From Marsupella aquatica (lineage: Eukaryota > Plantae > Marchantiophyta), in NCBI GenBank assembly GCA_973895155.1, contig OZ316894.1:15182699-15246698 (forward strand): 64,000 bases of DNA. The letters are read 5' to 3'. Position 1 is the stretch's first letter, and every line of letters starts with the position of its first letter. A program made the position numbers and the translations under genes. Below, one piece after another: positions 35,333 through 61,000 of the stretch. The notes beneath the pieces are model-generated. The model was not told where the DNA came from and ran no database searches. It saw only the letters and a program-made list of their open reading frames with translations.

Positions 35333-37800
35333 TGTTAGGAATTGACTCTCAGTTCCCAACTTCTAGTTAGTTTGGCCTTACTAGGGTTAGTTGGCCCTTA
35401 GTTAGTGTAGGATAAGATCTACTTATTTAGGCTCACACATCTTATATTAGTTCCCCTTGGGGGTATAGGTTGGAGGGAGAGCATTATCTCCCTCATTTTA
35501 CACATGTACTCTCATATGCTATGGATCCTTTAGGAATTTCTCCCCTTGGGGTATCTTGTCGGTGTAGCGTTTGATTGAGTGTATCTCTCATGTTCCACAT
35601 TGTTGTCTAGTTTGGAGTTGACGGTTTTTTACAAGTGGTATCAAAGCTTTGTGTTCAAGGTTCGGTGGCCTGGGCAGTGGTGAGAGCATTCGTGTGTTGG
35701 ATTGTGGTGAAAGATTGAATCATTGTCGACAATTGTGTGATCTTTTCATTGGTCATTTTGCGTTGATCATTCCGTGTTTGGAAGAGGTGACGGTTTCCTG
35801 ATTGAAACTTTGTTGAAGTATTAGAGGAGTTATTGTGTTTTTTCAAAGCGTACTATTGGCTGGACAATCCGGCGATTTATTGTGTGCATCGACGGGCACT
35901 TTGTCTCGATGAAAGTTTCACAATGTTTCATCCGACGAGTGAGGAGCAATTAATATTGTTTTATGTTTTGTTGTTAAGAGCATTAAACTCTTTGGCTATG
36001 GTGTTTATGTGTTCCACTTAATCTCTTGTGGGGCCTGTGGGGTCCCCTTTCTTTGTGCAAATATTGTGGTTTTTTGGTCGAAGTTGATATTTTTGATCCC
36101 CTTTCCTTTTGATTGCCGCACACAACTCTTTGCAGTGAGTCGGCTGGGACAAGGCAAACTAAGCGACAGTGGAGGTGCGCAGGTATGAGGGACACTTATT
36201 GCCCTGTATTTGTGACCAAGTACGAGGTACAAAGAGGGGCAAAGGGTGAGGGCCTGGCACGAGGCCCTATGTATCATTAGGTGGGGGCCCAATGTCTGTG
36301 CAGGTATGACTGTACCTATAGGTACAGTCATAAAGTGAGGGGAGGGGGAGTTCAAAGCTCCCTTCTCTCGGGAGCTTTAAAGGGGGCCCATTGCAGGTAT
36401 GACTGTACCTATAGGTACAGTCTTAAAGTGAGGGGAGGGGGAGTTCAAAGCTCCTTTCTCTCGGGAGCTTTAAAGGGGGCCCATTGCCCTATGCTGAAAG
36501 AGCGAGAAGGGGGGGGGGGCCTAGGCCAAAGCACATCAAGGAGTGAAAGGGGGAGAGAGCCTTAATTGCTCCCTCCTTTTGGGAGCACTTGATAACCTGG
36601 GCCCGAGGCCCTATGCTATGCAGGAGCAAGGAGGGGATTTAATGCTCCCTCTTTCCAAGAGCTTTAAAGGAGGGCTCAAAGCCCTATGACAAGCCAGGAG
36701 GGCTCAGAAGCACGTTAAGGAGGAGCTCAGGGGGCGCAAGGCCCTATGCAAAAGGAGCAAAGGGGGGAGACAATTTTGAGGCCCTAAGTTGGGTCCTTTT
36801 GGGTTGTAAGGGGCATTTAATTATGCTTGGGTCCCTTTGTACTTAAGCTATCGCAAGGGGGACTGATCAGGGTTTTTTTGTTGCAAGCAAAAAGGATAGT
36901 CGAATGTGTGTTGCCCTTAACCTTTTGGTTTTCCTTTTGTTTCTTCCTTTTTTCTTTTGCATTCTGGTGATTTCTTTTAAGCCAGACAGGTGTCAACACC
37001 TGGTGATTGCTGGAAAAGATACTTTTCTAGAGAGCTATTTTTTGGCCAAAAATTCCAAATTTGGCGGTCATCAAGACAGAATTTTTTTTGTGTGGCTTTG
37101 CAAGGGGATACTTAAGGGAGTTGAGCATGAGCTTGTGGAATTGATTTGCAGTTAACTATTGCGGAATTTTTTTGGGACCTAAGATACCCGACGGGTCAAA
37201 ACAGCCATTTTGGCCCCCCTTCAATCCGGGTCAAATAAGTTTTTGCTGAAGAAGGTTTTTGCCAAATCGTTTTCAGATTTTGGTAATGTACCTTGCAGGC
37301 TACACGGCAGTGCATTCCATTTCCACTTTTGCCATCTTTTATTTTTTGGTGATTTTTTGGGTGGAGGTATTTTGGTTCCTTGTGTGTTTGTGGTAGCATC
37401 CATGGCTTCCCGAAAGCTTGTGGCACCAAAGTTTGAGGTGGAGAAGTTTGACAGGAAGGTCAAATTCAACCTTTGGACTTGGAAGGTGATCAACGTGTTG
37501 ATTCAGTAGGGTCTTAAGACCATCACTGGAGTGAAGCCCTCAAATCTAACAGATGAGGAGTGAGATGACATGTCAGTGCAAGCGTGTAGCACAATTGAGT
37601 TTTTCTTGGCAAACAACATTCTCAAGAACGTGTTGGGGATGGGCCATAACGCTAAGAAAATATGGGATATGCTTACTCAGCTATACCAGAGTACTTTGTT
37701 GACTACTTGTATTTACCATTTGGAGCAGCTGTTCAGGTTGAGGTTGAAGGATGGTGGAAACATGCGTGATCACCTCAGTCTCTTCAAGAGGTACACAACT
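35333..37800 (+). mobile_element. Truncated Copia (Tork/Tnt1-like): 5' LTR 35333-35633, Met PBS, long leader, decayed gag
   Basis: TGTTAGG...TTACA followed by TGGTATCAAAGC (35636-35647); gag KFEVEKFD..FNLW..VLIQ, AKKIWDMLTQLYQ, LFRLRLKDGGNMRDHL. Confidence 0.75.
36299..36484. repeat. 93-bp tandem duplication containing a long palindrome and a hairpin
   Basis: TATGACTGTACCTATAGGTACAGTCATA (36305-36332) is a perfect palindrome; AAAGCTCCC-N7-GGGAGCTTT hairpin. Confidence 0.9.
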
Positions 37801-38900: not shown

Positions 38901-39327
38901 CATTACTCTTCAGAACTGGAGCTTGATAAACTTATACTTACATGGCGAGTTTGGAGTCTGTCACTTCCTACCGAGCTACTCTCATCCGATTGAGCTTCTT
39001 TTGCCCTATCATCGACAAATGTGAGAGTTTTCCTTTTTCTCTCTTTTACACAACAAGGCATTATTTCTTCATGATACGTATCAGCAGTGTAGCACGGAAG
39101 GGTTAACTTCTTTTGCGAGAAATATGCCAAAGGTTCCTCCCACACAAGCTTGACAAGCCGTCTGTCCTAGCTGTCCCATTCTGATGTAGCTGACTCGGTA
39201 ATCCTGTCGGGAACTACTACTTAGTTATTCTTAAATCCAATCAAATCATGTATTGCGCCCAAAACAGACGAAAACAAGAAGGCATTTGTGGACATGGATA
39301 GCCCAATAGAGATTGACCATTCCATCC

Positions 39328-39765
39328 GGATGGATCTTGGAGAGGGCAGCCAAGATTGACTCTTCCATCGACGGATCTTGGAGAGGCCAGCCAAGATGAC
39401 TCTTCCATCGATGGATCTTGGAGAGGGCAGCCAAGATTGACTCTTCCATCGACGGATCTTGGAGAGGCCAGCCAAGATGACTCTTCCATCGATGGATCTT
39501 GGAGAGGCAAGCCAAGATGACTCTTCCATTGACAGATCTTGAAGAGGCCAACTGAGATTGACTCTTCCTGAGACGGATCTTGTAGAGGCCAGCCAAGATG
39601 ACTATTCTTTCAGAGCGGATCCCAAAGAGGCCAACCGAGATATATTGACTCTTTGTGAGACAGATCTTGGAGAGGCGAGCCAAGATTGACTCTTCCTAAG
39701 ACGGATCTCGGAGAGGCCAACCAAGATGACTCTTCCTCAGACGGATCTTGGAAAGGCCAGCTGAG
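39328..39765. repeat. Minisatellite, ~41-42 bp unit, ~10 copies
   Basis: GAYGGATCTTGGAGAGGSCAGCCAAGAT(T)GACTCTTCCATC head to tail. Confidence 0.92.
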
Positions 39766-41129: not shown

Positions 41130-41417
41130 AACAAGGAATAGTAAGGAAGATGTTTTAATGTTAGCAAAGTATTTAGGGTTTGCAACCCTAAGTAGCTAGG
41201 GAAGGCTAGTAGGAAATAATATAAGGGAGAAGATATGTTGTTCTAAGAAAGTGTCAAGGGATAAGTGAGGTCTTTATGGCAGGGCAGCAAATATTTTGTC
41301 CTTAGTTAGAATAGACGACTAAATTGGGCCGGAAAATGACCCGACAATTGAGGTCTTAGTTTTGGTTAAAGATTTTTCCCATAGGTGCTAGGAGGTCCTT
41401 AGAGCACCCCTGCGAAG
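41130..41417 (+). repeat. Dispersed repeat; inverted homolog of 24266-24560
   Basis: Direct sequence comparison. Confidence 0.8.
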
Positions 41418-42507
41418 TATGACGTCAAGTGGGGTCTCAACCTAGGGTTTCCTTGTGTTTTGGTGAGACTTAAATTAACAAAATAACGGATCCCGGGGAA
41501 AATAGCTAATGGGCAAAAAGTTAGGGTCTAAGTAAAAATATAAGTTTACTAGTGTCCCTTCTATTCCTGGAAACTTGTGGGAGAATTTGGTTACCTTTGG
41601 TTACTTTTTGGGAGCATCTCAAAGTTGAGAATTTTTTTGGAAAACATAAGAATTAACTCTCTTTACCTAATTATAGAAATTTAAATTGATTACAGTGTTT
41701 TGTTTAGATCTTAGTAAACCGGGACATATTCCTATGTCCAAAGAACCTATGGATCTACTCACAAGTCATTTTGGACTCATGGGTGAGTTTTTGGGGCGGT
41801 CCAAAACAGCTAGGGAAACAGCTAGGGAATGTTGTTTTTTCCAAATCCGAAAATGTTTTCTAAGTGTAAAACCGTCGACGCAACTACGACGAAACGACGA
41901 TGAGGTAGGCAATAAGCACGTGATGCTTCATGGCTGAGTGGAAAATTGAAGCTATGGTGGGCTATGATGTTGGTTGGATGATTAGGACACGAGAGATGCT
42001 ATGAAGGTAATAGACTAGTAGTGATTGAAGTTGAAGGGTGAGCTCAGACTCAACTATGGCTGTTGTGATTCGAAGCTGCTGTATGGCTGCTATTGGGCTG
42101 CAAAATTGAGAGGGCTGGCTGCTGGAGAATGGAGCTATGGCTGGCTACACTAGGTGCTGCTATAGCCAGCCTGCTAATTGAGGGCGCAGCTGTAGAATTC
42201 AAGATCGATGCACCAATTAGAAGAAGTGTTGGCTCTCGAATCAATCTGTGAGCTATGAATTGAAGAAGCTATGGATAGTTGCAAAATTGACCAGAAGAGC
42301 TACAAATTGAGTTGTTGGCTGCAAGCTATGCAGGACTAGTATGGCAAGTTGCTGACCAACAACACGAGATTCATGTTGTTGCTTTATCCATGGTGCTCCT
42401 TCATTCACGATCCTGCTGTGGGAAGAAAAAGAACCATCCAAATATATTTTTAGCCAAGGCCAAGCGGGGGTTCCGATAGCTTGCAAACCAGAGCCGACAT
42501 AGGGAAT

Positions 42508-45500
42508 TGTGATGCCTAGACAGGAATCACTCGGCCGGTTAAGTGGGTAAAGCAGGAAGGCACCCTAGGAACACCTTAGTATAGGGACAAAACAAGGAAA
42601 ATATAAACAATTAGGGGCAACCATGGAACCCGGGCAGAGGCCGGAGGTAAGGCTGAGGGTGAAAACCCGATTAGGGTTAGGGCGCGTTAAGCGTCGGCGG
42701 CTAGGAAGGATCAACGGGAAGAAGGACCGGCAGAGGAGAGGGGTAAGGAGCGCTTGCAGGAGATGGTGGCTCATTTGCGAGCACGAACTAGGCAGACGAC
42801 TACGGGAGGCCAACTACTGTCAGCTGCTTAGGCAAGCACTCGGGGAGAGAATAGATACCGACGATCGACCTAAGGAGGGTATGAGCAACGTCAATCAAGC
42901 GGCACATTTCTGGGGATGCCTGTTCGAACGGGCAACTGAGTACATCAAGACTTATGAGGACGAGGAGTCAGAAAGGGCAGCTCGAGAACGGCAGGAGCTC
43001 GCTCGATTGTGGGAGCTGCAGAAGACGGCTTTCTTAGGAGGCGAACTCATCAAGGGGGAGTTCCTGTGGACGCCTACTTCCAATCAACTCGACGATCTTC
43101 TGTTTTGCAAAGACAGCGTCGTCGGCATCCGAGAGGCCATCAAGAACTGCAACGACATACACTGGGAATTAAAGGGTAGCACGGAAAGGTGGACCCAGGC
43201 AACGGTGCTAGGAGAAACCTCCACGGCAGCAGAGATGAAGAGGAAGGGGGCCGTCAACGATGAAGCCACCCCGGCAAAAAGAACGAGGTCGGCGGCACCA
43301 AAGAGGCCAGCCGAGCAGCAGAGCAGGAGGCAGGGAGAAGCCGAAGAGGAGGAGGTCGATCCCATCAAGGCCATTCCAACAAACGATGACACCTGGAAGG
43401 GCTGGGCGGCAACCCTACCGGTGGAGGTGCAACTACATTTTGCACGGGAGGAGGATGCATGCTTTACGGCCATGCAGACCAAGAAGTACCAAGGCTTCAT
43501 GGCCGGATCCGGCTTGGAGGCCTTTGTAAGATTACCATGGCTGAAGCCGGAGGTACCGGAGTCAGACCTATTAGAATTCGTGGGGTCATGGGAACCCGAG
43601 ACCAATTGCACGAGGATATATGGGAAGGATTTCTATCTTACTCCCAAGGTAATTGCCGAAGTGTTTGGCTTGCCGATAGGCAATAAGACCAAAGTTGATA
43701 CCAGGAAGACCTTGCCTGACAAGGAGTTCCGGTCGTTCCCCGGGCCATCAACGAAGAATGGCTTCTTCCGGAACACCTGCACCAACCCGCACATAGGAGA
43801 GATGATCGACTTCTTGCGGGTGACCATGCATTGTAACTTGCCGAGGGCAGAGATCGGCAAGGCACAGGTCTATCTGGCAGAAAGGCCAGACCCAAGCCGG
43901 GACTACAACGGGTACCTCCTCAACCAATTGAAGAAGATCTTAAAGGAGGAGCAGCAGGTAATCGGCATGGGGAGCGTGTCGCGGCTTGGCTATCACATGC
44001 CGCTGTTGTGCCGGTATGCCAGAGATCAGACTTTTGCCCCGGTACTTCCCCTGTAGGTAAGGGCACCCGAGGAAGCTCCAACGCCGAGGCCGTTGGCTGA
44101 GAAGCCTCAACCACCTGTTAGTCCTACGATCGAGCAGGTGTTTAGGCCCAGGAAGGAAGACTTGCCGATGCAGCAACCAGGCATGCAGAGTCTGCTGAAA
44201 CTACTGGAGAAAGAAAAGAAATCGGCATCGGCAACAACAACGGCAACGGCAACAATGCAGGACACTACTACAGAGGTAGGCCTACACCGGCTCACAAGAG
44301 AAAACCCCTTTGCTGGAGACAAGGAGAGAATCAGGCCGGAATCCAAGCCAGGTGTTCGAATGTACGTGGGAACCTCAAGCTTCGAATCTGAGGCAGAATT
44401 GCCTGAAGCTCCTACCGACGAAGAGGAGAGGGAGAAGCCGGACGTCCAAGAGGTAGAGGAGGCAGTGGAGGACTGCAGCCATGATAATTCCGGCTATGGG
44501 TCGGACCATCACGTTCCAGGAGTAAGGACCTGTGGCCGGTTTGTCCCCACACTTCCAAGGGTAGTGTGAGGGGACCCCAACCAGCAGAGTAGCCCTGAGT
44601 CTCCCCCACCAGATGTTGCTCCCCCGAGCTTCGACGGCATAAAACAGACGGTGCAGGAATTTCAGGAGCGAATCAAGCAGGAGGAGGAGGCCGCCCTGGC
44701 TAAGGAAAAGGATTTACCAGGAGGAGATTGGCCGGAGGACATCAGGCGGCTAGCCGAAAAAGGAAGCAAACCTCTAGCCACGATTGAAGAGATCCGCAGG
44801 ACGGCTTGGGAGCAGAGGCCACGATGGGCGATGCCGATCACTTCTACTTACTCCACCTACGCTAAGAATAGAGCCATGGAGTATGGTGAGATGTGTGGGG
44901 AACTTGCGCTCGGCATCTTTGGAGAGGAGTTGGAGGTAGGACCCTTTTTCCATAGGGAGCAGTTGGAGAAGCACCAATTAGAAGAAGCGGTGGCTTTAGA
45001 GAGAAGCAAGAAGGACGAGGTCATTCGGCGGCTTAGGAGGATGGAAGCCGAGATTGAAGATCTAAGGGCGGCCAAGAAAGCCCAAGATGAACTGCGGATT
45101 AAACGACATGAGCTGAACATCATGCAGGGGCAGTTGGACACCGCGCAGGCTGATAATCAGAATATCAAGGATAAACTGACTCAGACGCAGGGAGAGTTGG
45201 CCGATACGATCAAAGAGAGGGAGAAGTGGAAGCAAGAGCTGAAGAATACAGAGGAGGCCCACATAACAGCCAACAGCCGGGCCATGGCGGAGACCCAAAG
45301 AAAGGAATGGGCGTTGAAAGGGGAGCTCGAGAAAATCCGCGGAGCCCTTGAGCAGAAGGAGGTCGAGTTAGGGAAATCCTATCAAGGGATTATGGCGCTG
45401 CAGCAGGAGCTTGCGTCCCTGACGGCCAGCTTCAAGGCCGACCTAAGGGAGAAGGACGAGATGCTCGAACAGACTTACGCCAAGATGAACCAGATGGAGT

Positions 45501-47167
45501 CTGTCATCATTGCAGAGCTCGACAAGGAGCTAAGAGCAACCCAGGAGGAGAGGGCTACCTTGAAGAAGGAATTGGAGGAAGCCCACAGGGAGCAGGAGGA
45601 GGCCAAAAACGAGCTGGAGGGGGCACGTAAGGACCTGGATGAAACCCAAGAGGAGTTGGAGGAAATCACGAGGAAGATGGAGAACCTACAGCGGCGGGCC
45701 GACAACCAAACAGAGCGGCTGAAGAAACAAGCCGCAGTATTTAAATGCTTAGCTGCAGCAGGTCCATCTCCCGTTGGGACAAACCAGTTACTAGGGGTGG
45801 TAATTGCCGAAGGACAAGCCGCACCACCTGCACCAGTGCCGGAAGTAAGTGGGAAGGGGAAGGGACCAGCTGCCGAGCCACCAACGAAGAAGAAGCGGAA
45901 ACCTTCAGGGTCAAGGAGTAATACGACTTCACAGGCCGTGGTGATCAAGGAGGTAGACCCAACACCGACCCCAGACAGGGTCACGGCTAAGGATCCAACT
46001 ACCCTAGGGGAAGGGGAGGCCGAAGCCGAGGGAGTGGCTGAAGCCGAAGCTGTGGGAGTGGCTGAGGCCGAAGCCGTGGGTATTGCCGAGGCCGGTGTCG
46101 AGGCTGAAGCCGAAGGTGGACCCAGTCAGGCCGAGGGAGAGTTGACTCGGTCAAGGGCAGGTAATCTGTCAGTAGGCGGGCCAACGGCAGTGGCTGAGGA
46201 GGAAGTGTTGGGGGCGTCCATTAAGGATCCACCACCGGTGTCGTGACGGTGCAAGGGCGCCGTTCCTTTTAGGGAGGGCGGACGTGGAGGGAGGAGGCGT
46301 GAGTGGGCAGGGCGGGCGCGGATCTCCACGTTTAGGATTAGGATCAGAACCAGGAGCGGCCCTGACACTTAGCTTAGTGGGATTGCGGTTCCACTGGTAG
46401 GAGCAACACTTGTGCTCCTGCCTTGCTGTACATAGGTAGATTCGGGCAAGTAGATTACTGTCAGGTAGATTAGGCTTACGATGCAAAGAATGGCGGATCC
46501 ACTACCAGGATAAGTACCTGGGCAGCGGGGAGCTCAGGGCCTCTTCTTTAGCAAGTTTTTAGTTTGCACCAGCCGGGCTGGGATCAAGTAGTACGAGAAG
46601 CTCTCGGTTAGTCATACAGTGACCCTTGTGTATATTCATGTTTCCTCATGCCTAAGAGCTGAATAGAGTTGGCCTCACGGCTTAGTTCGCAGAACTTGTG
46701 TATGAGATGTACTGTTTGTATGGCAAGAGCATGGTATGACTCAGTCAGAATGAGTCATTTTGCTATTTGTGTGTCGCATTAACTTGTGTGAAGAGTGCCC
46801 ACATCAACAGAAGGAAGGAAAGTAAGCAGGGGAGTGAGAGTTGGATGTGTCGAGCTGAGAGAGGTCTTAGCGGCTTAACCAAGCCTATTGGGGATCATTC
46901 CGGCGGCGGAATCCAAACATACCTAACAAGACGGAGGGGAAGACAGGGGAAGACAGGGGAAGGCCTATATTAGGCCGGCTACGTATCTCATGACCCGATG
47001 AAGGATCTGTCCAGTATATGTGTGTAAAATGTTAATAGTAGTAGTAGAAGGTTAGCAGCGTCCCATGCCGCTAAGCCGCGGAAACTGCCTCGCCAAGCAC
47101 GAAACCTGCGGGAATCGGCTTGAGCTGGGGGGTTCCTTGGGTTTAGGGAGCCATGGGACGCACCACA
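42508..47167 (+). mobile_element. Element A: 4660-bp TG...CA element with 5-bp TSD (giant solo-LTR-like)
   Basis: TGTGATGC...GCACCACA termini; TSD GGAAT (42503-42507 and 47168-47172); collinear with 51310-56048. Confidence 0.9.
42623..46246 (+). pseudogene. ~1207-codon ORF: PMD/Transposase_28/32-like domain plus long coiled coil; two in-frame stops
   Basis: ORFs 42623-44056, 44093-44569 and 44651-46246 share one frame; the stops are sense codons in copy B; EFVGSWEPETNCTRIYGKDFYLTPKVIAEVFGLP resembles the PMD W-x-P-E-T...GLP block. Confidence 0.75.
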
Positions 47168-48811
47168 GGAATGACCACCAGATTTAGGGACTCACTTTTC
47201 TCGCACCCATACCACTTTAGTTAGGATATAGGGAAGGTTACTTACCTTTGGTCAAAGGTGTAAGGCCATCAAGCTAAGAGAAGTAAGTATAGGGGGTAGT
47301 TTACTTAGGGTAGTAAAATAAGGCCAACTTTGACTAAGCATAACTTGAGACTCACTCACTCTTTTTGAGAGCTTTCAAGTGGGTTGGAAATCTGGTGAAG
47401 AGGACCATAAGTGGGAGCAACTCAAGTGTGGCATATTCTAGGGCTTGGAGGAGTCAAAACAGCAGGTTGTAGAGTGGGCTATGAAGTATAGATTTGGACT
47501 TTGTGTGTTAGGAGGACTTGGGAGAGGTGTATTTTGACCCCAGGTTGAGTTTGGTGTGGTTTGGAAGGAGAATAGTATATAATGAGAAAGTTTTCCTTTG
47601 TTAGGGACCAGAATTCTCAGTTCTCGAAGTAGAGGCTCTACCTTGCTAAGTTGGGGCTAAGTTTGAGAAGGAGATGAGGTTCATACTTAGTGTGAGGATT
47701 TTATAGAAGATCTTTTGTTGTAAGGATTGAGTATGCAATGAAAAGAGTCTTCCAATCTTCATTGTGACCATTAAGTGTGAGAGAATTTGAAGTGTATGAG
47801 GGCAAGAGAAGAGTCCATATTTGGGTGCAATCTTGGTCTAAGCTTGAAGGGGATGTGCTGGTACACAACCAAGGTCAGGGAGGCAAGGCTAAGGTGGAGC
47901 ACTACTTTGGGACTTAGAGAGGATTGTATCTTGAGGATAGAAAGTACCTTGCCTTGAGTGAGAACAAGAGGGAAGAGTCCTTAGAGAGAAGAGTTGTCTC
48001 TAAGAGCTCAAGGCAGGGTACTCTTTGACAGTTATTGAGGAGAGAAAGGATGTGGGAGGGGGAGAGGGAGTGCAAGAGCTCAGGTGATGGTCCCTTGGGG
48101 CTTTGCAGGGTCAAGGTGTGATTGCACAATGCTATTGGGAGGGGAGCATTTTAATTTTTCCCTTCCCTTTTTTGGGGAATTTACAAACGACAGCAAATAG
48201 ATAACAGTAACAGCAAACAGTTACTGTTATCAGCTAAAAGAAACTGTTACCAATGAATAGTGTTTGGCTAGCAGTGAACAGTGATCATGAAAAAAGGGGA
48301 CGAAAGGTGCATTTCAAACTACTGGTATAGAAAGTAAGACGACCAAACTTGCGTGAAAGGAAATTGGACAAAACGGAGACATGAATTTCACAATTGAGAT
48401 AAACAAAATCTGAGACCAATATATGTCAAAATGCCCAAGGAGAAAAGAAAATTGTCATATATAATCACAAAGTACAAAACGTGCTCAGCGTAGGTCCTAA
48501 AAATGCAGTTATAAGTTAAAACTTGGAGGCCTAGAAATCCGATATACAAAAGCCACGGTCGATCCCGACTGAGGATTGCCAATAAAACATAAGCAGCGCT
48601 CGGCGCTAGCCAACCATTGAATGAAAAACTATGTGTTTCCTGAAGACAACAACCGGGAAAACCCTAACAACTAAGCCAAGGTTGACTCCGTCCCAAAACA
48701 TCGAAAAGAGCATAAGCAGTGCTCGGCGCTAGCTTAAAGTGATCACCAAATTGAACAATGCTACATCGTTCTTCGTGCAAAACTATAGGAACAACAAATA
48801 CGACTTTGTAT

Positions 48812-49300
48812 CTAGTTTTCAGAGTTGCAATCATCCTCCACTCCTATCGCTTCTCTCCTCCAATCTTTCTTGAATCCAAGACCACGCCATCGAATGTATC
48901 TCTCAAAAGGTCCCCGATGCACTGCCCTCATAAAACCTCCATTTGGAATATTACTGTCCTTAAAGTCAACTTGCCCAAACATTTCTTGCACTCTCCTATT
49001 GATTGGCAGTACACCATCAATAGGAACAGCCTGATGAGACGAGAACCTACTTGCAAATGGGAGTGGAGGAGAATTGACAATCCACGGGATGTTCTTCTCT
49101 CCAGGACTAATAGCCTCATCATACGGTAGAGCATGAAGGTTCCAAAAAGTAGAGGTTTTAGTCTCTTCAGTCTCCATCTGTGACTCAAAAGAGCTGAAAT
49201 GGCTCTCTTTCGGACGCACACGAGAAGGAAGGAATGCTGCCTCCCAATCCATGAGCTCACCGTTTCTCACCATGTTGAATAGAGCCCAATCAAATGTCAA
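48812..49300 (-). CDS. Hypothetical protein inside MULE family 2
   Basis: 162-codon ORF with protein-like composition, flanked by family-2 palindromes; no recognised domain. Confidence 0.3.
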   Translation of the reverse strand: MTFDWALFNMVRNGELMDWEAAFLPSRVRPKESHFSSFESQMETEETKTSTFWNLHALPYDEAISPGEKNIPWIVNSPPLPFASRFSSHQAVPIDGVLPINRRVQEMFGQVDFKDSNIPNGGFMRAVHRGPFERYIRWRGLGFKKDWRREAIGVEDDCNSEN

Positions 49301-49859
49301 CTTCCCCTCTCACAAAATGCAAAAAGTGTCGCCCGCAAAAGGTCCAAAATCTATCGTCCGCAAAAGGTCCGCAAACGATCGTCGGTCCAAAAACTGTCGA
49401 CCGCAAAAATTGTTGCCCGCAAAACGTCCCCAAGCTGTTGTCGGTCCAAAAACTGTCTTCAACAAGAGGACCAAAAATGTCATCCGCAAAAGGTTTGAAA
49501 GTTTGGGGTATCCACTAGCACTTACAGTCCATGTGGGGTTTCCTTTGGCAAACTAACGGACACAAACCAAATGGCCGTTGGTATCCAAAACGTATAATAT
49601 ACTCTTTATTGCCTACTATTTGTCTCATTATGAAGACCGTTGGTAGGACACGACAAAGACCAAACGGCCATGACACACCAATAAAAGCGGGAAATATTTG
49701 CTTTATGAATCACCATTTGGCGAGCACCAGGCGCTTGTAAAAAACACAAGTAATGAGACATCAATTTATAAGGACCCTCAACAGAGGAACTGAATACAAG
49801 TTGGTACTAGCGTCGGGCGCTGCTAAAACATTTCACCTAAACTTCTTCAATATGTGTCA

Positions 49860-51309
49860 CAATTCTGAAGATTTTGATTCGGAACCAAAATCTGTACTTT
49901 GGGATTTGTCCGTGGACACAGCCTCATCATCTACGTACTGGCTACAGGAGAAGTCATCAACATAAGGATGTTTAATGAACTTCCTGTCAACACCCCTTCG
50001 TAACCAAAGACCTTTGTTTTCCCAGCAAAGCGTCCTGGTACTCTCGGCTTTCCTTGCGGCTTTCTCTACATAGGAGGGAAGAACAAAAGGTTTTTCTGGT
50101 GTTTCTATGTTGTGTCTAGCAACCCTCCTTCACAGTTTGAAACGTCTCCTCGCATTCCGCTCTGACCTGATGAAACAAAATCCAGCACGTTAGGTGCCTT
50201 TCGCCAGAACAACACAAAAATGGTACAAATTGACGGGAATGGAGAAAGAAGCTTACGAGTTTATGAACATTACTCGGAAGAGTCATCACTATCGGTTTTG
50301 TCCACGCCTCCACGAGGCTCTTCCTTTTCCTCCTCCGAGTCCCCTGTACCTTGTTCCTCTCCACCTTCATTGGACTCATCATCAAAATCAAAATTGAGAA
50401 CCAACCGAAGCTTATCTCGCTTCTTTCTGTCGGCAGTAGGAACAGGTGGAGGTAAAACCACAATCTCTTTGGGAGACAACAAATCCATAAAAACCTTTGA
50501 AGGAGTTTCAATAAATTCTTTTCTATGTTCTATCCCGAGTACAAACCGCCCGGAGAAGTCTCTAGCAATGAAGGAGCTTCCAGCCCCAGCAGTCCAATCC
50601 ATAAAAATATCACAAGGTCGGCTGACAAGCTCGATCACAAATTGAAATAAACCCGACAGACAGGCGAGCATTTCCAGCAAACTCCATTTGCGGGAATGGA
50701 TCGGATTTGAGAGAAGGGAGTCCGATCAAATTGGTGACCAAGGGTCCTCATTGATGGAGATTGGACGGAATTTAGGGTCTTTGGAAATTTTACGTTTCCC
50801 ATTAATTCGACCAAATATGTCCAGTCTGAGGGTAAACATCTGCCGAAAGCAATCCGAAGTGTCAAATGGCAATTCCGGGTTACACAAGTTTTAACTCAAA
50901 ATGGGAAATAGTAAAGAGTAGATAATTACCTGATGGTCTGTCTTTGCCGCGTACGTGGGGACAGACATTACAACATTATGCATGCATATACATTGGAATC
51001 TTCTTGACTCCTGACAGGCAGCAATGACTTGAGACATGAGATTGTACTCCCCATTGTGTAGAATTGCAAGGAACCCATCATCTGATAAAAATGGATCCAT
51101 GGATTTGAAAAAAGATCTAGCCATGGAGTGATCTGGAATGTTCCATTTAGGAACCTTCTTATCTATGATCGCTGGTTTGAACCCGGTCAGTAGGTAAATG
51201 AAGCCCGCATCCACTCCAAACAATCTTTTTTTTCCGCCCCACACAACACTTTTCTCTTTATATCCCGACTTAACGAGATCCTTCCCCCACCTCTCCACAT
51301 TACTAACCC
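49860..51309 (-). pseudogene. Third copy of the cargo gene: MTase-like domain and C-terminus
   Basis: GVDAGFIYLLTG, DPFLSDDGFLAILH, SRPCDIFMDWTAGAGSSFIARDFSGRFVLGIE, TPEKPFVLPSYVEK, SQYVDDEA; DNA-level similarity to 24745-25130. Confidence 0.8.
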
Positions 51310-54300
51310 TGTGATGCCTAGCCAGGAATCACTGGGCTAGTTTAAGGGGAAAAGGGAAGTGTACCCTAGAAACACCTTAGTATAGTTACATAAATAAGGA
51401 AAATATAAACAATTAAGGGTGACTATGGAACCCGAGCCAAGGCCGGAAGTAAGGACGCCAGGGGAGAGAACACGATTAGGGTTAGGGCATGCTAAGTACC
51501 GGTGGCTAGGGGTAACCAACGGGAGGGAGAACCAGAGGAGGAGACGGGTAAGGACCGCTCGCGAGGAATAGTAGCTCATTTGCAAGCACGAACTGAGCAG
51601 GCGACTACGGGCGGCCAACTACTATCAACTGCTTAGGCAAGCGCTCAGGGTGGGAACAGATACCGACTATCAACTCGAGAAGGGTATGAGCAACGTCAAT
51701 CAAGGGGCACATTTTTGGGGATGCCTGTTCGAACGGGAAACTGAGTACATTGGGACTTACGAGGACAAAGAATCGGAGAGAGCAGCTCGAGAACGGCAGG
51801 AGCTCGCCCGATTGTGGGAGCTGCAGAAAGCTGCCTTCTTAGGAGGAGAACTCATCAAGGCTGAATTCCTGTGGACGCCTACTGGCAACGAGCTAGACGA
51901 CCTGCTGTTTTGCAAAGACAGAGTCGTCGGCATCCGAGAAGCCATCAAACGCTGCAACGACATACACTGGGAGTTGAAGGGTAGCACGGAGGGGTGGACA
52001 AAGGCAACCGTGCTAGGAGAGACATCCACGGCAGCCGAGATGAAGAGGAAGGGGAACAACAACAAAGAGGCCACCCCGGCAAAAAGAACGAGGTCGGCGG
52101 CACCAAAGAAGCCAACAGAACAGCAGAGCAGGAGGCAGAGAGAAGCCGAGGAGGAGGAGGTCGACCCCATCAATGCCATTCCAACAAACGATGACACCTG
52201 GAAAGGCTGGGCGGCGACCCTACCGGAGGAAGTGCAATTACACTTTGCACGGGAGGAGGATGCATGCTTTACAGCCATGCAGACCAAGAAGTACCAAGGC
52301 TTCATGGCCGGATCCGGCTTGGAAGCCTTCGTAAGATTACCATGGCTGAAGCCAGAGGTGCCAGACTCAGACTTGTTAGAATTCGTGGGATCATGGGAAC
52401 CCGAGACCAATTCCACGAGGGTGTATGGGAAGGATTTCTATCTCACTCCCCGGGTGATTGCTGAAGTGTTTGGCTTGCCGATGGGTAATAAGACCAAGGT
52501 TGATACCAAGAAGACCTTACCTGACAAGGAGTTTCGGTCGTTCCCAGGACCATCAACAAAGAATGGCTTCTTCCGGAACACCTGCACCAACCCGCACATC
52601 GGAGAGATGATCGATTTCTTGCGGGTGACCATGCAATGTAACTTGCCGAGGGCAGAGATCGGCAAGGCTCAGGTCTACCTGGCAGAAAGGCCACACCCAA
52701 GCCGGGATTACAACGGGTACCTCCTCAACCAACTGAAGAAAATCTTGAAGGAGGAACGACAGGTGATCGGCATGGGAAGCGTGTCCCGGCTTGGCTATCA
52801 CATGCCGCTGTTGTGCCGGTATGCCAGAAGTCAAATCTTTGCCCCAGTACTTCCCCTATCGGCAAGAGCACCGAAGGAGGTCCCAGAGCAGAGGCCGGCA
52901 CCAGAGAAGCCCAACCAGCCCGACAGTCCGACGATCGAGCAGGTGTTTAGACCAAGGGAAGAAGACTTGCCGATGTAGCAACCAGGCATGCAGAATCTGC
53001 TGAAATTGCTGGAGAAGGAAAGGAGACCAGTTCCGGCAACGGCAACGACAACGGCACCAATGCAGGACACTGCTCCAGCGGTAGGCCTAAGCCGGCTTAC
53101 AAGGGAAAACCCCTTTACTAGAATCAAGGAGAGAGGGAGGCCGGAACACGAGCCGGGAGTCCGGATGTATGTAGGAGCCTCAAGTCCCAAAGCCGAGGAA
53201 AAGCAGGCCGTAGGTCCCGGCCACGACAAGGAGAACAAGAGATCAACACGGAAGCCGGAGGAGGAACCAAGACTGGTGAGAGGTGAAGCCGTGTTTACAA
53301 CAAAACCAGGAGAACAGCGGGAGAAGCCGATAGTCCAAGCCGAGGAGGAGGCGGTAGAGGACTACAGCAATGATGACTCCGGCTACGGGTCGGATCATCA
53401 TGTTCCAGGAGTAAGGATCTGTGGCCGGTTCATCCCCATGCTCCCAAGAGTAGTTCGAGGAGACCCAAGCCAGCAGAGCAGCCCCGAGTCTCCCCCACCA
53501 GATGTCGCTCCCCCGAGCTTTGACGGCATAAAACAAATGGCGCAGGAATTTCAGGAGCGAATCAGGGAGGAAGAGGAGGCAGCCCTGGCTAGGGAAAAGG
53601 ATTTACCAGGAGGAGAATGGCCAGAGGACATCAGGCGGCTTGCAGAAAAACGAAGCAACCCTCTTGCCACCGTAGAAGAAATCCGCAAGACGGCTTGGGA
53701 GTAGAGGCCGCGGTGGTTGATGCCGATGACTTCTAGTTACTCCACCTATGCTAAGGATAGAACCATGGAGTACGGGGAAATGTGTGGAGAGCTGGCGCTC
53801 AGCATCTTTGGGGAGGAGTTGGAGCAAGGACCCTTTTTTTAGAGGGAGATGTTGGAGAAGCGCCAATTAGAAGAAGCGGTGGCTTTGGAAAGAAGCAAGA
53901 AGGACGAGGTCATCCGTCGGCTTAGGGCAAGGGAAGCCGAAATCAAAGACCTGAGGGCGGCCAAGAAAGCCCAAGATGAGTTGCGGATTAAGCGGCATGA
54001 GCTAAATATCATGCAGGGCCAATTGGATACCGCACAGTCTGATAATCGGATTATCGAGAATAAACTGACTCGAATCCAAGGAGAGTTGGCCGATGCGATC
54101 AAGGAGCGGGAGAAGTGGAAGCGAGAGCTGAGGGATGCAGAGGAGGCCCACATAACAGCCAACAACCGGGCCATGGCGGAGACCCAGAGAAGGGAAAGGG
54201 CATTGAAGGGGGAGCTTGAGGTTATCCGCAGAGCCCTTGAGAAGAAGGAGGCCGAGTTAGGGAAATCCTATCAAGGGATTATTGCACTGTAGCAGGAGCT

Positions 54301-56048
54301 TGCGTCCCTGACGGCCAGCTTCAAAGCCGACCTGCGTGAGAAGGACAATATGCTCGATCAGACTTACGCCAAGATGAACCAGATGGAGTCTGTCATCATT
54401 GCAGAGCTCGACAAGGAGTTAAGAGCGACCCGGGAGGAGAGAGGTGCGTTTAAAAGGGAGCTGGAGGAAGCCCAGAAGGAGCTGGAGGAGGCGCGCAAGG
54501 ACCTGGACAAAGTGCAGGAAGAGTTGGAGGAAAGCACGCGGAAGCTAGAAAACTTACAACAACGAGCCGACAACCAAGCGGAGTGGCTGAAGAAACAAGC
54601 CGTAGTATTTAAGTGCTTGGCTTCATCAGGGCCAACTCAAATTGAGGCCACTAAGTTACCAGGAGTAGTACTAGCCGAAGGACAAGCCGCGCCATTTGCA
54701 CCAGTGCCGGAAGTAAGTGGGAAGGGGAAGGGGCCAGTTGCCGAACTAGAAAAGAAGAAGAAGCGGAAACCTTAAGGGTCAGGGAGTAATACGGCTCCAC
54801 AGGCCATGGTGACCAAGGAGGTAAACCCAGCACCGACCTCAGGCAGGGTTACGGTAGAGGATCCAACTACCCTAGAAGAAGGGGATGACAAAGCCAAGGC
54901 CAGGATACTTGGTAATGAAGCCGAGGTACCCAATCCGCCACTTGAGTGTGTGGGGGAGGCCGTAGTCGAGGCTGAGACCGTAGCCGAGGTTGATGTTGAA
55001 GCCGATGCCGATGCCGGGGGTGGACCCAGTCAGGCCGATGGAGAGTTGACTCAGACAAGGGCATGTAATCTGTCAGAGAATGAACCTACGACAGTGGCTG
55101 AGGAGGAAGCGTTGGGGGCGTCCATTGAGGAATAGACACCGCTGCCATGACGGTGGTGGAGGGCCTCTCCTTTCAAGGAGGGCGGACGTGGAGGGAGGAG
55201 GCGTGAGTGGGCAGGGCGGGCTCAGATCTCTAAGTTTAGGATTAGGATCAGGAGGCGGCCCTGACACTTAGCTTAGTGGGATTGCGGTTCCACTGGTAAG
55301 AGCAACACTTGTACTCCTGCCTCGCTGTACATAGGTAGATTCAGTTAGGTAGATTAGGCTTACGCTGCAAAGAATTAGGCGGATCCACTACCAGGATAAG
55401 TACCTGGGCAGCGGGGAGCTCAGGGCCTCTTCTTTAGCAAGTTTTTAGTTGCACCAGCCGGGCTAGGATCAAGTAGTAAGAGTAGCTCTCGGTTAGTCAT
55501 ACAGTGACCCTTGTGTATATTCATGTTTCCTCATGCCTAAGAGCTGAATAGAGTTGGCCTCACGGCTTAGTTCGCAGAGCTTGTGTATGAGATGTACTAT
55601 TTGTATGGCAAGTGCATGGTATGACTCAGTCAGAAGGAGTCATTTTGCTATTTGTGTGTCGCATTAACTTGTGTGAAGAGTGCCCACATCAACTAATAGA
55701 TGAAGGAAAGTAAGCAAGGGAGTGAGAGTTGGATGTGTCGAGCTGAGAGAGGTCTTAGCGGCTTAACCAAGCCTATTGGGGATCATTCCGGCGGCGGAAT
55801 CCAAATATACCTAACAAGAAGGAGGGGAAGACAAGGGAAGGCCTAGATTAGGCCGGCTACGTATCTCATGACCCGATGAAGGATCTGTCCAGTATATGTG
55901 TGTAAAATGTTAATAGTAGTAGTAGAAGGAGGTTAGCAACGTCCCATGCCACTAAGCCGCGAAAACAGCCTTGCCAAGCGCGAAACCTGCGGGAATCGGC
56001 TTGTGAAGGGGGGTTTCTGGGGTTTAGGGAGCCATGGGACGCACCACA
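51310..56048 (+). mobile_element. Element B: 4739-bp second copy of element A
   Basis: Same termini; TSD AACCC (51305-51309 and 56049-56053). Confidence 0.92.
51425..55135 (+). pseudogene. Copy-B PMD-like/coiled-coil ORF with several in-frame stops and no frameshift
   Basis: ORFs starting at 51650, 52988, 53849, 54350 and 54806 share one frame; stops correspond to CAG/TGG/TCA/CAT in copy A. Confidence 0.75.
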
Positions 56049-56206
56049 AACCCATTCAGGTTTTTCCTCCTTGTTGAAAGTTGAGTCAAAAAATTCAAAT
56101 AGGCTTGTCTCAACCATGCAATGACAAGACACTGTAGTTTTGAAGTTTCCAACTTCATGTTGGACACCAGATGCTGCAACACTCTCCCTTGAAGAAGGTC
56201 CACCTT

Positions 56207-58471
56207 TGGTAATGGTAATGTATTATAAGCTCCGGGACCATGAAAGTCAAAGGAGCTGCCACAAAAAGTAAAGTACAATGCAATCAAAGAAAAGAGCAAC
56301 CAAAAGAGATTGCTCAGAAGAGGACAACTATGTCCTCAAAGAAACTATGGATCTAGAGAGCCCTGAAAGATTTTCCAAACCTATTCTCCTTTCCCTATCC
56401 ACCGCAAAGATATATCTTCCAAGTTGCTGAGGGGGCAGACCAAACAATGCATACAAATCTTTCACCAAGATTTGAGATGCCATCCTAACCCCCTCATAAA
56501 ACTTGCAAGCAATGAATACATGATATTCATTCTCTATACTAGAGCTATCACATAGTTGACAAACCCTCTTTTTCCTGTCAATATCCTTCCATCTCCCTTG
56601 TTCTACTTCAAGGTGGTGTGAGCTTAGTCTATACTGAGCAATAAGTTGTCTAAGTTGTACTGAGATAGTGCTAGATAAGTATTCTTGTTCTCGATATTTC
56701 TTCATGGGGTTCACATCTCTCATGTAGTATTGCTGCCGTGGGCTAGGTTCATGCCAAAGTTTGTGCAAAGCCTTTTGCTCAAGTTTTGCTCTTAGCTTGG
56801 TTGGGTGTGTTGGCCATTCATGTTCAGGAAAATCCCAAGCATGGGCCCACCTGCACACATCTGCATACCACCCTTTAGCTGAAGATGAGCGCAAGGCATG
56901 AAAAGGAAATCTGTTTTCCTCCAACTCTCTTACACGCATGATGTATTTGAGTGTGTGGAAGAGTGCCTCCACCTCCAAAGGAAACAAGCCTGCCTCTGCA
57001 AGTGTAAGTGCATATGGGGTTTGTGACTTGATCCCAAGCTCCATCTCAAGAAATAGCTTTTGCAGCCCCTCAATCTGTTGCCACCCAGATTTAGACACAC
57101 CTGCTCCCCAAATTGGTGCTCCATAAAGAATGACTGGTTTCACCAAAGCTCCAAAGAGATGTTTCCTTAACCTCCAAGTGTGTAGACCAGCTCTTTTGCA
57201 TTTGTTCATGAATGCATAAAAAGCTCTGTACCCATTGGCAGCCCTAGATTTTACACATGAGGCCCAACTCAAGTTTTGAGAGAACTCCACCCCAAGGTAT
57301 TTGTAGGTCCTCACAAATTCCACCAGATTCCCTTGGAAGTAGAGCTCTGGATTTTGTCGTGTGCCAATGCCCAAACACTTGGTCTTCTTGAGGTTGACTA
57401 CCATCCCTGTTGCTTGACAAAACTCCTCCAAGGCATTGAGATGTCTTTGCAAAGCTTCTTGAGCATGAGCAAGTAGGACCACATCATCTGCAAATATAAG
57501 AAGTTGGAGGACAAACCTACCCAATTGAGTGCCAACTCCACCATGCTCCTCCAAAATGTTGTGTAGCTGATCAATGAAGATGCCAAAGAGAGTTGGTGAG
57601 AGAGGACAACCTTGGATCACCCCAAGAGTGCTCCAGATTTCTTCAGAGGTTTCCTTTGAAAGTTTGATGCGCACTTCTTGGTACAATTTAGAAACAGCCA
57701 ACCTGAGCTCTTCAGGCACTTCCAACTCCACCATCCTATCCCAAAGCTTGGATCGGGAAACTTTGTCAAAGGCCTTGGAGAAGTCCACAAACAAGCAAAA
57801 TAATGGTTTATGTGGAGATTTGGCCTTTTCACACAACACCCTCAAGCAGAGAATGTGATCCATAGTGCTGAATTCTCTCCTAAAACCTGCTTGTGAAGGT
57901 GCCCTTTTCATCTCACTCTCCAACCAAGAGCTTAATCTGGCTTCAAGTAGTCCTCCCAAAACTTTAGCAAAAGTATTGCCTACCATGATGGTTCTGTAGT
58001 TGTGCACATCGTCCTTGTTGCCTGCCTTGAAGATAGGCACCACTCTTCTGGTCATCCAAGCTTTAGGTAAACCTAAAGCCATTGCTTGATTCAGCTCATG
58101 CACCAAGTTTGTTAGTAAAGAGGGTCCTCCCCACAAAAGAAGCTCCAAGTTCAGGCCCAACAGATCTTTAGCTTTCCCATGTTGCATGTGGGAAAGATGC
58201 ACCTTCACCTCCCTCTTTGTAAACTGAATGGTGTCCCCAAGGGGCAAAGGCATGCCACTAGCATCTGGAAAGAAATACAAGGATGTGACATAGGTTACCA
58301 GGTCCTGGTGATCCAAGGGGGGAGTAGTCTTGCCTGATTGCATTCTCTCCCAAAAACGTTTTGGATGTTTGATGAACTCCTCACATAGTGATTGTTGATG
58401 ACTCTTCAAGAAGCACCTCTTCTTGTGTTTGATGAAGTTCTTGCCATAGTGAATTACCATTACCATTACCA
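56207..58471 (-). mobile_element. 5'-truncated RTE/RTEX-like LINE with (TTACCA)n tail
   Basis: RT ORF, ~100-bp 3' UTR, and tandem-repeat tail at 56207-56220. Confidence 0.9.
56328..58453 (-). CDS. LINE reverse transcriptase with C-terminal CCHC finger (endonuclease truncated)
   Basis: VVPIFKAG, NYRTI, QAGFR, FVDFSKAFDKV, GVIQGCPLSPTLF, IFADD, YKYLG, CQLC..ENEYHVFIAC; no internal stop. Confidence 0.93.
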
Positions 58472-58871
58472 TAAGAACTTTACCCTCTTTTGAACTGTTT
58501 CCTTCACAAGGGGTTTGCAAACCCTCAAAATGTGACGGACCTCCTCGAACATGCTTAGTAGTACGAAACGAAAGAATATCATTACTTTGTTCCTTCTCCC
58601 TCGCCACATGAAATTTGTTACGTACATGCAGAGGGGTGAATTAACAACCAGAGTATCGAGTGGAGTGTCATTAGCGCCTTGTGCCACGTTAGCACGTTCC
58701 AGGAGGAAAAGGTACTCACTGATTACCGGAAATTGAATTGATGGACCTCCACTTTTGCCAGAAGTCTAGGATAGATTTTTGCCCAGGCCATCCTCACTTA
58801 AGCCAAAAGTCATTGATGGTTTCATTCACATCAAAATCTCTTGGTTTGTTGTAGAACCCTATCTCGTTCCT

Positions 58872-59005
58872 TAGCATCACAATTGCTACCAATAGAGCCA
58901 CTACACAAATATTTCAACATTCTCTCGTCCTTATGAATAGCATCACAATTGCTACCAATAGAGCCACTACACAAATATTCCAACATTCTCTCGTCCTTAT
59001 GAATA
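58872..59005. repeat. 66-bp tandem duplication
   Basis: TAGCATCACAATTGCTACC...CCTTATGAA x2. Confidence 0.9.
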
Positions 59006-59737
59006 TCTTGCTGTCCAAAACCTACATCACCAACATCCATTGATATTTGAAGACTTGTCATCTACTCCATCTAGCAGCCCAGGAATAAGAATTGGAGTAT
59101 CATGTAGTTTGAAACACTTAGGATCATTTGTGGTGCTCTTTGATATAAGATCATTCCCTCACACACTTGCTCACACAAAGTTGTTCACTTATGGTCAAAA
59201 TAACAGGAAATTTGTGTGAGTGGTGTCACCGCAAGAAATTGTTTAAAAAAAGTGGATGAGGGTGAAATTGTATCCTCCTCATGATGCAGGTCTTTGGAGT
59301 TGTTAAGGATCCCCGGCCTGGATTTGACAATAATATATTTCCTAATCCAATGGACCCAACAACCTCATGTGCATGCTATGCTACAAAAATGGTTCACTTA
59401 CACACCAAGATCAGATTCTCATGATTGTTCATTTCACCCACGCAATCTCCTTCCTCACACATCTATTAAAAGATGTTGAAATCATGTCAGGTCCTTGGCA
59501 AAAATGTGTAATGACATCTTATACATATACTGTGATCAGGGTTGTCTCCTGACTTTTCAGACAAATACGTGCAATAAACTAGGTGGAGACCACCATGTTT
59601 TAACATGAATATTCGTTGATCTAGCAGACATATATAGGGATCGTTGTGCTGCTGGATCATGGGAAAAATTCAATCATCTTCTGGATTGTATTGTCTGTGC
59701 ACTCTGCTAAATTGTACTATCTGTCTCATGCGTAGGC

Positions 59738-60290
59738 ATGGCACGCCCTAAAATCCGAGCCAAGAAGCGGGGGACAGAGGTGAGCAACACAGGTGTAGTT
59801 GGGCCAGATGGTAGTAACTTCTCCGCAAGTCAGATTTTCCAGAAGGCAGCTCATTGTTGTGCCATTTGTGACGATGGTGGTGGCTTAGCCATATGTGAGG
59901 GCCCTTGCATGAGGCATTTCCACCTCAACCCGGAGTCTGACCTTGCTGCAGAAAACAACTGTCCAGGGGTGGGCCTCCCGTCAGCACACCAGGGAGGCTG
60001 GATGTGCACTGATTGTTTGGAGAAGCAGGCTAAGTGTGCACAGTGTGGGAAGTTGGGGTCTTATGAGGGCTCTGTTGATGCTCCACCACTTGTTAGGAAA
60101 TGCCCTGACAGATATTGTGTGAGGTTCTTTTGTTTTTCATGTTTGCCCGATCTTGCCACAGCTTGCCCACTTCATAAGTGCAAGGCATGTGGTCAGCACG
60201 ATGAAGATTTCTGGGTGGACATAGTCCACTGTGTTAGGTGTCCCACCATGTGGCACTTTCATTGTTTGAGGAGCGTCAAGCAGAAGGCTA
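59738..60290 (+). CDS. EDM2/NSD-type tandem PHD-finger exon
   Basis: CAICDDGGGLAICEGPCMRHFH..WMCTDC..KCAQCGKLGS..CPLHKCKAC..CVRCPTMWHFHCL follows the EDM2 PHD pattern. Confidence 0.8.
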
Positions 60291-61000
60291 TGCTTGTGAC
60301 AGACACATCTATGATCACTCTGCACATGGTGTTGATCGATGGATCTTCTATTGTCATCGCCATGCCATAGATCCTACTTTGCACACTCCCATGAGAGATC
60401 ACATTTCTTGGCTTTGAACCTGAATAATGTACATGCATAGTGCACCTGATGTGGATACCTTGGAGATTGCGGACATTCCAATTTTGAGAAGAAGGACCTC
60501 TGTAGGAGAGGATGCTTAGGCAACAAGTACCCTAAGTTCATTACTTGTTCTTGGGTACATGCCTTCAAAAACTCCCCTTAAGCCTTCTAGGAACTTTTTT
60601 AACTCTGCAATCATTTTGATCACGACTTACATGACACTGCTTAAATTAAATCAGGACTTCTCATTATGAGCATATAAGTTACAAGGCTATTTAATTTGCG
60701 AGAATTCCCTTAAAGTGTACCAACATTTTGTATTCTCATTGAATGTCTGCCCATTTACAACATCTGTATGTGGCATCACAAAACAATTGCACTTGTCACC
60801 TTCAATATTGTGAAGGCACATATTCAAATTATGAGGTGCATGCTTGCAGGTGTCTAGTACGTTTGTCCCAATATTTCTCCCGTTTGGAATCGGAGCAGAG
60901 ACTCACCAGACGACTGGACTGGACCAAGTTATAAACGCAGCATTTTAAGGGCCCTCCGATTATCAGGTGAACGCATTATCTTCCGGTCTGCAGTGATTAG

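Follow-up and report, generated by a model that had tools for sequence, protein, structure and literature searches.

Two 4.7-kb insertions in the liverwort Marsupella aquatica, likely solo long terminal repeats that carry a retrotransposon accessory gene

Two related insertions of 4.7 kb, elements A and B, were analyzed in a 64,000-nucleotide stretch of the genome of the liverwort Marsupella aquatica (contig OZ316894.1 of assembly GCA_973895155.1, forward strand, positions 15,182,699 to 15,246,698; this whole stretch is hereafter the window, and all positions refer to it). We consider A and B likely to be solo long terminal repeats (LTRs) of a high-copy Ty3/Gypsy retrotransposon of the Athila/Tat type, whose 4.7-kb LTR would contain a complete accessory gene, and put the probability of this reading at about 0.78. 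Each copy holds one large predicted gene, with ~72% of the 4.7-kb unit coding. The tentative assignment to Athila/Tat rests on resemblance of the protein type and on the anatomy of the junctions; the family's own pol was not found.

A preliminary description of this DNA had delimited the two elements by their ends and by separate target site duplications (TSDs), GGAAT and AACCC, and both the sequence and the empty sites confirm these boundaries:

42503..42507, no strand: left copy of the TSD of A, GGAAT, seen in the sequence
42508..47167, + strand: element A, TG...CA, likely solo LTR, 4660 bp, with empty-site contigs and sharp ends
47168..47172, no strand: right copy of the TSD of A, GGAAT, seen in the sequence
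51305..51309, no strand: left copy of the TSD of B, AACCC, seen in the sequence
51310..56048, + strand: element B, TG...CA, likely solo LTR, 4739 bp, with an uninterrupted paralog of its target at 24743-25282
56049..56053, no strand: right copy of the TSD of B, AACCC, seen in the sequence

Both elements start with TGTGATGC and finish with GCACCACA, and they are 86% and 85% identical in two alignment blocks. The inverted tips are 8 bp long and have no inward extension. The target of B is a repeat (50922-51309 plus 56050-56206) whose uninterrupted paralog, ~80% alike, connects the two flanks of B around a single copy of the target. For A, contigs of the sequencing runs X1 and X2 connect both flanks and omit 4664-4674 bases. 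Since empty-site evidence exists for both elements, A and B are true, independent insertions. As the preliminary description had it, neither has terminal direct repeats (the largest repeats sit inside the open reading frame, ORF), and no gag or pol domain was found by Pfam in A, B or the tested ORFs between them; a tblastn search gave no match to Gypsy pol anywhere in the window. No primer-binding site or polypurine tract lies beside A or B, where the flanks consist of the TSD plus host repeat. The spacer between A and B was considered as an internal region and rejected, as A and B are each bounded by a TSD of their own and no pol lies in the spacer. The right flank of A (47173 to about 48150) is itself a multi-copy repeat, deeply covered in X1 and X2.

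The family that carries these ends is large. Evidence on it came from contigs of sequencing runs (X1, X2, X3, X6 and others) placed on the A region, 15,707 of them in X1 and 27,335 in X2. Depth inside A exceeds that in the left flank more than 100-fold; these contig depths are sums, from which no copy number is derivable. Some of the A region is present in 15 of the 17 listed runs (10 studies), and at least half of its words in 6. The whole unit, ORF included, is similarly deep in X1-X3, and cover drops sharply at 47167, where the summed depth in X2 falls from 628,868 to 15,843; therefore, it is the 4.7-kb unit that is repeated. Ends of family units also occur inside other family copies. Runs X8 and X14 had no contigs on the right end, a negative that may be false.

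The long frame of each copy is read on the same strand as the element:

42881..46246, + strand: accessory ORF of A, 1121 codons counted from MSNV, interrupted by stops at 44054 and 44567, judged by the ratio of nonsynonymous to synonymous substitution rates (dN/dS)
51686..55150, + strand: accessory ORF of B, 1154 codons, interrupted by stops at 52976, 53702, 53840, 54290, 54773 and 55133

The first 86 codons after an upstream ATG (42623) have a dN/dS of 1.0-1.4 and two stops in B. As these codons evolve neutrally, the selected gene begins at MSNV (42881 in A, 51686 in B). A single gene of ~1200 amino acids (aa) had been proposed at first; the single long frame stands in both copies, the selected gene is about 1120-1150 aa, ~80 codons shorter, and neither copy is intact. 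The ORF is under purifying selection. Over alignment codons 87-1045 dN/dS is 0.20-0.31, depending on the transition weight (0.29 at a weight of 4, bootstrap 0.23-0.37), well below 1 in the comparison of A with B that the preliminary description had named as the check for a functional ORF. The core domain has a ratio of 0.09-0.13, the acidic tail one of 0.7-0.95. All five alignment gaps in the ORF are multiples of three (84, 21, 9, 21 and 6; chance 0.004), compared with 4 of 10 elsewhere, and differences between A and B are found at 88 of 396 four-fold sites versus 108 of 1113 second codon positions. The frame-preserving indels and the many synonymous differences noticed earlier thus hold, as does the observation that the stops differ: none of the two in A and six in B is common to both. 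Most of these stops are of the type expected from methyl-cytosine decay, and the stop at 44567 is absent from most of the family depth in all four runs. To judge from the sequence, active lineages had a functional gene, and decay followed insertion.

Two parts of the predicted protein were distinguished:

43364..44035, + strand: most conserved domain (core domain), 94% identical between A and B, dN/dS 0.09-0.13, with HMMER relatives and ESM Atlas neighbors, no Pfam match
44972..45746, + strand: predicted coiled coil, with a 21-nt periodic repeat, a 21-nt indel and a sub-threshold Pfam match of coiled-coil type

One of the 21-nt indels between A and B corresponds to exactly one coiled-coil heptad. 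At the curated Pfam thresholds (including Transposase_32 PF20167, ATHILA PF03078 and PMD PF10536), there was no match for A, B or 22 relatives. These relatives are the matches at E 0.001 or better in a HMMER search of 1.84 billion representatives; the best one matches the core domain at 42% identity (E 3e-49), and another, P0014, a bacterial adhesin, was rejected as spurious. Among 10 relative clusters looked up, two carry a species name, in both cases Calypogeia fissa. In the ESM Atlas, residues 160-391 fall near Transposase_32 and ATHILA clusters; the resemblance of the core domain to the accessory domains of Transposase_32 and ATHILA ORF-1 may serve as a lead only; the N-terminal domain had no match there. 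A profile search recovered three proteins from 7996 candidates, all of them from Calypogeia (P0013, P0032 and P0033). P0032 is 24% identical to the core domain (pairwise E 2e-12). The gene model P0033 of Calypogeia fissa encodes a Gypsy reverse transcriptase (RT), RNase H and integrase, followed in sense by 471 residues that are 96% identical to P0032. In this model, a Gypsy RT-RNaseH-integrase is joined to the C-terminal half of a protein distantly related to the ORF. By BLAST, the C-terminal halves of P0013, P0032 and P0033 did not match the accessory ORF. The pol part of P0033 presumably is Athila-like. Further searches were negative within their scope: PDB by sequence, a word-based homolog search with the read-through protein (0 of 5361 candidates), an alignment-based word search against longer proteins (0 of 3000), and scans of viral contigs with three proteins (0 usable loci).

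The sequence behind the right end provides indirect evidence on whether the unit is an LTR, and on its orientation. Majority summaries of the letters beyond 47167, from 33 contigs in X2 and 4 in X3 (separate studies with different organism codes), agree at 17 of 30 positions, and 13 of the 17 common letters fall in positions 5-21. The simulated probability of this agreement is 0.0003-0.001 with independent flanks and 0.006-0.013 if two of the X3 flanks are loci also present in X2. Most right-end contigs carry unrelated flanks, as expected with many insertions. The internal agreement in X2, 0.38, exceeds the 97.5% bound of 0.368 for 33 random flanks and equals the value expected if 5 of the 33 contigs have one sequence in common, and target-site bias could add to it. 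The common letters resemble a T-rich spacer of 4 nt followed at position 5 by a primer site of the TGG-CGC type. The fit at this position is 13, 11 and 8 of 15 letters in three runs, and at most 7 at other offsets. In X6, one of five listed right-end contigs stands out by its depth of 21.7, roughly threefold that of its neighbors (2-9.6), and extends for 206 letters. A junction with AT-rich 3-6 bp and then a primer-binding site that begins with TGGCGC is reported for ATHILA (bioRxiv 10.64898/2026.03.20.713144, in excerpts). tRNA-Asn serves as primer in 12% of Athila and in 15% of TatII elements. The right-end evidence thus favors, on the letters available, an LTR read on the + strand.

Other searches for the junction gave chance-level or null results. 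In the window, nothing closely matched the common right-end sequence (20 of 30 letters at best), the primer-site pattern gave two weak matches versus 1.27 expected, and no tRNA genes were found. A tRNA-end pattern gave 11 loci and 0 tRNAs. In metagenome contigs, the exact last 28 bases of the element had 0 matches, and the primer-site pattern had 29, about the number expected by chance. At least 120 matches to the junction motif were found in viral contigs, none related to the element by BLAST. L124 and L130, metagenome Gypsy elements of an unrelated family with direct repeats of ~600 bp around pol, have two of the 29 chance matches to the primer-site pattern; they were rejected as support, as the match lies near the Gypsy pol on the opposite strand and, in that reading, overlaps a likely start codon.

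The non-coding parts of the unit contain three candidate signals:

42599..42607 (B 51401-51409), + strand: TATA-like box AAATATAAA, candidate promoter of the accessory gene, kept within a region diverged by ~20%
46351..47167, + strand: conserved non-coding 3' block, candidate promoter/R/U5, 34 of 789 differences versus 88 of 396 at four-fold sites (Fisher p 2e-20)
47058..47161, + strand: predicted hairpin at the right terminus, with a closing inverted repeat of 10 bp, also in B, from folding z scores

The TATA-like box, which the preliminary description had placed ~90 bp inside the left end, is present in both copies and sits at +92 of the unit. Divergence in the 5' leader is at the level of silent sites (76 of 372 versus 88 of 396), whereas the last 817 bp are 4.3% diverged versus 22% at four-fold sites; this may reflect either strong cis constraint or recent exchange between subfamilies. 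The hairpin takes up the last 110 nt; folding of the last 120 nt gives a z score of -4.5 in A and -2.9 in B, the lowest of 38 windows in A and the fifth of 39 in B. A GC-box-like, G-rich tract at 46270-46320 lies directly after the ORF stop, is kept in B and borders the conserved 3' block; it could be a second promoter. A search of Rfam gave no match. A Tekay/Del origin was considered from a loose likeness of the left end to TGTAACACCC (PMC4029996, in part) and disfavored, as Tekay is mostly primed by tRNA-Met.

The ends, the 8-bp inverted tips and the 5-bp TSD fit an LTR integrase, and a TSD of 5 bp is reported for 93.4% of plant LTR elements (PMC6317226, in part). We reconstruct the parents, the integration route and the formation of the solo units as follows: (i) full-length parents would have two 4.7-kb LTRs around gag-pol and measure 15 kb or more, (ii) the parental integrase would make the TG...CA insertion with its 5-bp TSD, and (iii) recombination between the two LTRs would delete the middle and leave the solo unit, a process reported to be readier for long LTRs (Du et al. 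2012 as cited in PMC7251063, in part). The gene would lie in sense because the element is read on the + strand, with the primer site behind the right end. Most likely it lies within U3 and has its own promoter at +92, since genomic RNA starting at +120 would call for a first cDNA piece 4.5 kb long; the promoter, R and U5 for the genomic RNA would then be in the conserved last 800 bp. The gene probably entered the LTR when the site of second-strand priming moved upstream of an accessory ORF that normally stands between pol and the 3' LTR. An ORF downstream of pol is suggested as the origin because the Calypogeia gene model points to that layout.

The other explanations use the same observations differently. 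The preliminary description had left a choice between giant solo LTRs that encode a protein and an LTR-less non-autonomous element mobilized by a retroviral-type integrase. In the latter case the 4.7-kb unit would be a complete element, copied through RNA or excised as DNA, with its 8-bp tips recognized in trans by a Gypsy integrase. This would account for the solitary state of A and B with perfect TSDs, for the unrelated flanks of most right-end contigs (agreement 0.38, n = 33) and for family ends inside other family copies, and the terminal hairpin could serve in priming. However, solo LTRs have the same appearance, and long LTRs reportedly form solos more readily (PMC7251063, in part). A transcript from the TATA box at +92 would moreover be unable to restore the left end in the absence of a terminal repeat. 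The primer-site-like sequence common to the right end of some copies also speaks against the LTR-less element, which we regard as unlikely. An origin as a recurrent product of deletion or recombination, for example from a split-repeat or tandem element, appears somewhat less probable still. Here the ORF would be internal, caught between parts of an LTR, and the true LTR would be shorter and non-coding. Conservation of the last 800 bp does exceed that of silent sites and of the 5' leader fivefold, as in a mosaic unit, and in X6 depth is greater at the right end (49-57) than over parts of the ORF (14). Against this, A and B, 15% apart, have the same layout to the base, with the left TG directly on the TSD, depth over the unit is even in X1-X3, and template switching between subfamilies in R would likewise be expected to yield a mosaic.

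A non-autonomous DNA transposon of the Ginger/GingerRoot type with a captured Gypsy accessory gene is very improbable. TG...CA ends do occur in Ginger and in 5 of 77 cargo-bearing GingerRoot elements, but GingerRoot has terminal inverted repeats of 100-150 bp and a 6-bp TSD, and the TSD is 4 bp in Ginger1 and 6 bp in Ginger2 (PMC6839031, in part); A and B have an inverted repeat of 8 bp, a TSD of 5 bp and no DDE domain. The giant solo LTR with a coding LTR is preferred for the primer-like right-end sequence in a minority of copies, the kinship of the ORF with Gypsy accessory ORFs and the existence of known plant LTRs of up to ~5 kb.

Several observations weigh against the solo LTR reading. A full-length element of the family, its gag-pol or a polypurine tract was not found in the window or in the short read contigs, and the left-end summary (4 contigs, agreement 0.52, chance level) has no clear polypurine tract. 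The probability of the 17 of 30 agreement rises to 0.05-0.08 if all four X3 flanks are also in X2. The fit to the primer site is partly circular, as the motif was picked after the data were seen and its last five letters come from the data; its continuation, which we take to be of the tRNA-Asn type, was likewise assigned after the fact and was confirmed by no paper or tRNA scan. At position 7, X2 and X3 have C, where TGG needs G, and only X6 has G. The primer-site evidence consists of majority summaries of mixed flanks, not of single contigs, and the deeper X6 contig could be a duplicated locus. On the protein side, the core domain is without a Pfam match, its Atlas scores (0.89-0.91) are within the range reached by 4-10 in 100 shuffled proteins, and the AlphaFold model is unusable (pLDDT 48) and gave no fold match. 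The Calypogeia link consists of 24% identity and one gene model, which possibly joins unrelated neighbors.

The function of the protein is the weakest step of our reconstruction. It has basic stretches (near residues 120-135 and 1003-1008) that resemble nuclear localization signals, an accessory-type domain, a coiled coil, an acidic tail and no transmembrane helix (maximum 19-residue hydropathy 1.1); lacking a membrane helix, it is not env-like in the strict sense. By analogy with Grande gene23, Retand TRP28 and the plant-mobile-domain proteins in silencing, we tentatively predict a nuclear regulator of the family, acting for example on chromatin or silencing, with odds slightly short of even. 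Somewhat more doubtful is the wider suggestion that this lineage made its LTR a self-contained 4.7-kb gene cassette, such that each remaining solo LTR would be a promoter together with a large nuclear regulator. If so, the main route by which the host deletes the element would leave a trans-acting helper or anti-silencing gene in place, and in the extreme case the solo unit might keep moving without a full-length parent.

The window is eukaryotic, repeat-rich and CpG-depleted, and contains further mobile elements. An intact and very young Ty1/copia element at 284-6076 (+ strand) has identical 147-bp LTRs (284-430 and 5930-6076), the TSD ATAAG and a single gag-pol frame of 1545 codons (954-5591); its primer site presumably is of the Bianca half-tRNA-Ile type. 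To the right of B, a long interspersed nuclear element (LINE) with an RT ORF of 770 aa lies within 56207-58640 (- strand, RT 56328-58640) and has a short CATTAC-repeat tail. A 5'-truncated LINE copy of 155 bp at 34802-34956 (+ strand) is 98.7% identical to it, and a 265-codon frame at 32359-33156 (- strand) with a zf-RVT match is probably the end of another LINE. A 337-codon frame at 13922-14935 (+ strand) had no Pfam match; by eye it resembles a fragment of a DDE transposase, and nearby frames (10000-13708 and 15757-16491) could be part of one element with it. A run of frames at 59711-62577 (+ strand) has NSD-like PHD fingers (59711-60370), followed by two BRCT repeats (61001-61867) and by a weak F-box match (62002-62577); these frames may be either pieces of host genes or transposon cargo. 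Tandem arrays are located at 39300-39765, 36299-36487 and 58872-59005 (periods of about 81-83, 93 and 66 bp), and an inverted pair of 290-bp repeats, 81% alike, at 24266-24551 and 41133-41417.

Plant LTRs are treated as non-coding, and reviews, as far as their excerpts go, put accessory ORFs in the internal region; phrase searches of mainly open-access literature returned, among the hits listed, no example of a plant LTR that harbors an ORF. With a coding LTR, the generation of a solo LTR leaves the gene in place, and each intact element would carry two copies of it. Such units would probably enter annotations as host genes or unclassified repeats and escape LTR finders that use short size windows. 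As an alignable sequence, a coding LTR could also serve as a marker in studies of LTR evolution, and as a system in which to test the function of Athila/Tat accessory proteins.

Among known systems, the additional ORFs that OTA Gypsy elements carry in plants (Athila ORF-1 PF03078, the Ogre plant mobile domain, Retand TRP28 and Grande gene23) resemble that of A and B as accessory ORFs with, as a lead, a Transposase_32/ATHILA-like domain, and in their coiled coil, nuclear-type features and likely own promoter. They differ in being internal, mostly between pol and the 3' LTR (PMC6317226, PMC7264820 and PMC11963269, each in part), whereas the ORF of A and B lies inside a TSD-bounded unit. The 5-bp TSD is a further likeness to Athila/Tat, being found in 95% of Athila. 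Liverwort Tat elements are described as lacking aRH and as having a layout close to that of Athila (PMC13468544, in part). Solo LTRs of ATHILA share the 5-bp TSD and are frequent, with 4,124 solos versus 2,050 de novo intact elements, and the AT-rich spacer and TGGCGC-type primer site of ATHILA are like the putative ones behind the right end; the ATHILA LTRs measure 1-2 kb, excerpts of the source mention no ORF in them, and the putative primer site would diverge from that of ATHILA after the first six letters (bioRxiv 10.64898/2026.03.20.713144). The giant LTRs of non-chromoviruses, up to about 5 kb, match A and B in size and are described with expanded non-coding regions (PMC6317226, in part). 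TRIM, LARD and TR-GAG elements have two terminal direct repeats, whereas A and B have none. P0013, P0032 and P0033 of Calypogeia fissa, unnamed products, are related in protein with 24% identity over the core, and one gene model fuses a relative to Gypsy pol. In genetic layout, the sag gene of mouse mammary tumor virus (MMTV) is alike: it lies within the U3 of the LTR, survives mainly in solo LTRs (490 of 527 sag contigs) and has a dN/dS near 0.29 (0.289; PMC4667437, in part), inherited from the active element. MMTV is an animal retrovirus and its protein is unrelated, whereas A and B are plant insertions in which an ORF of ~1120 aa fills 72% of a 4.7-kb unit.

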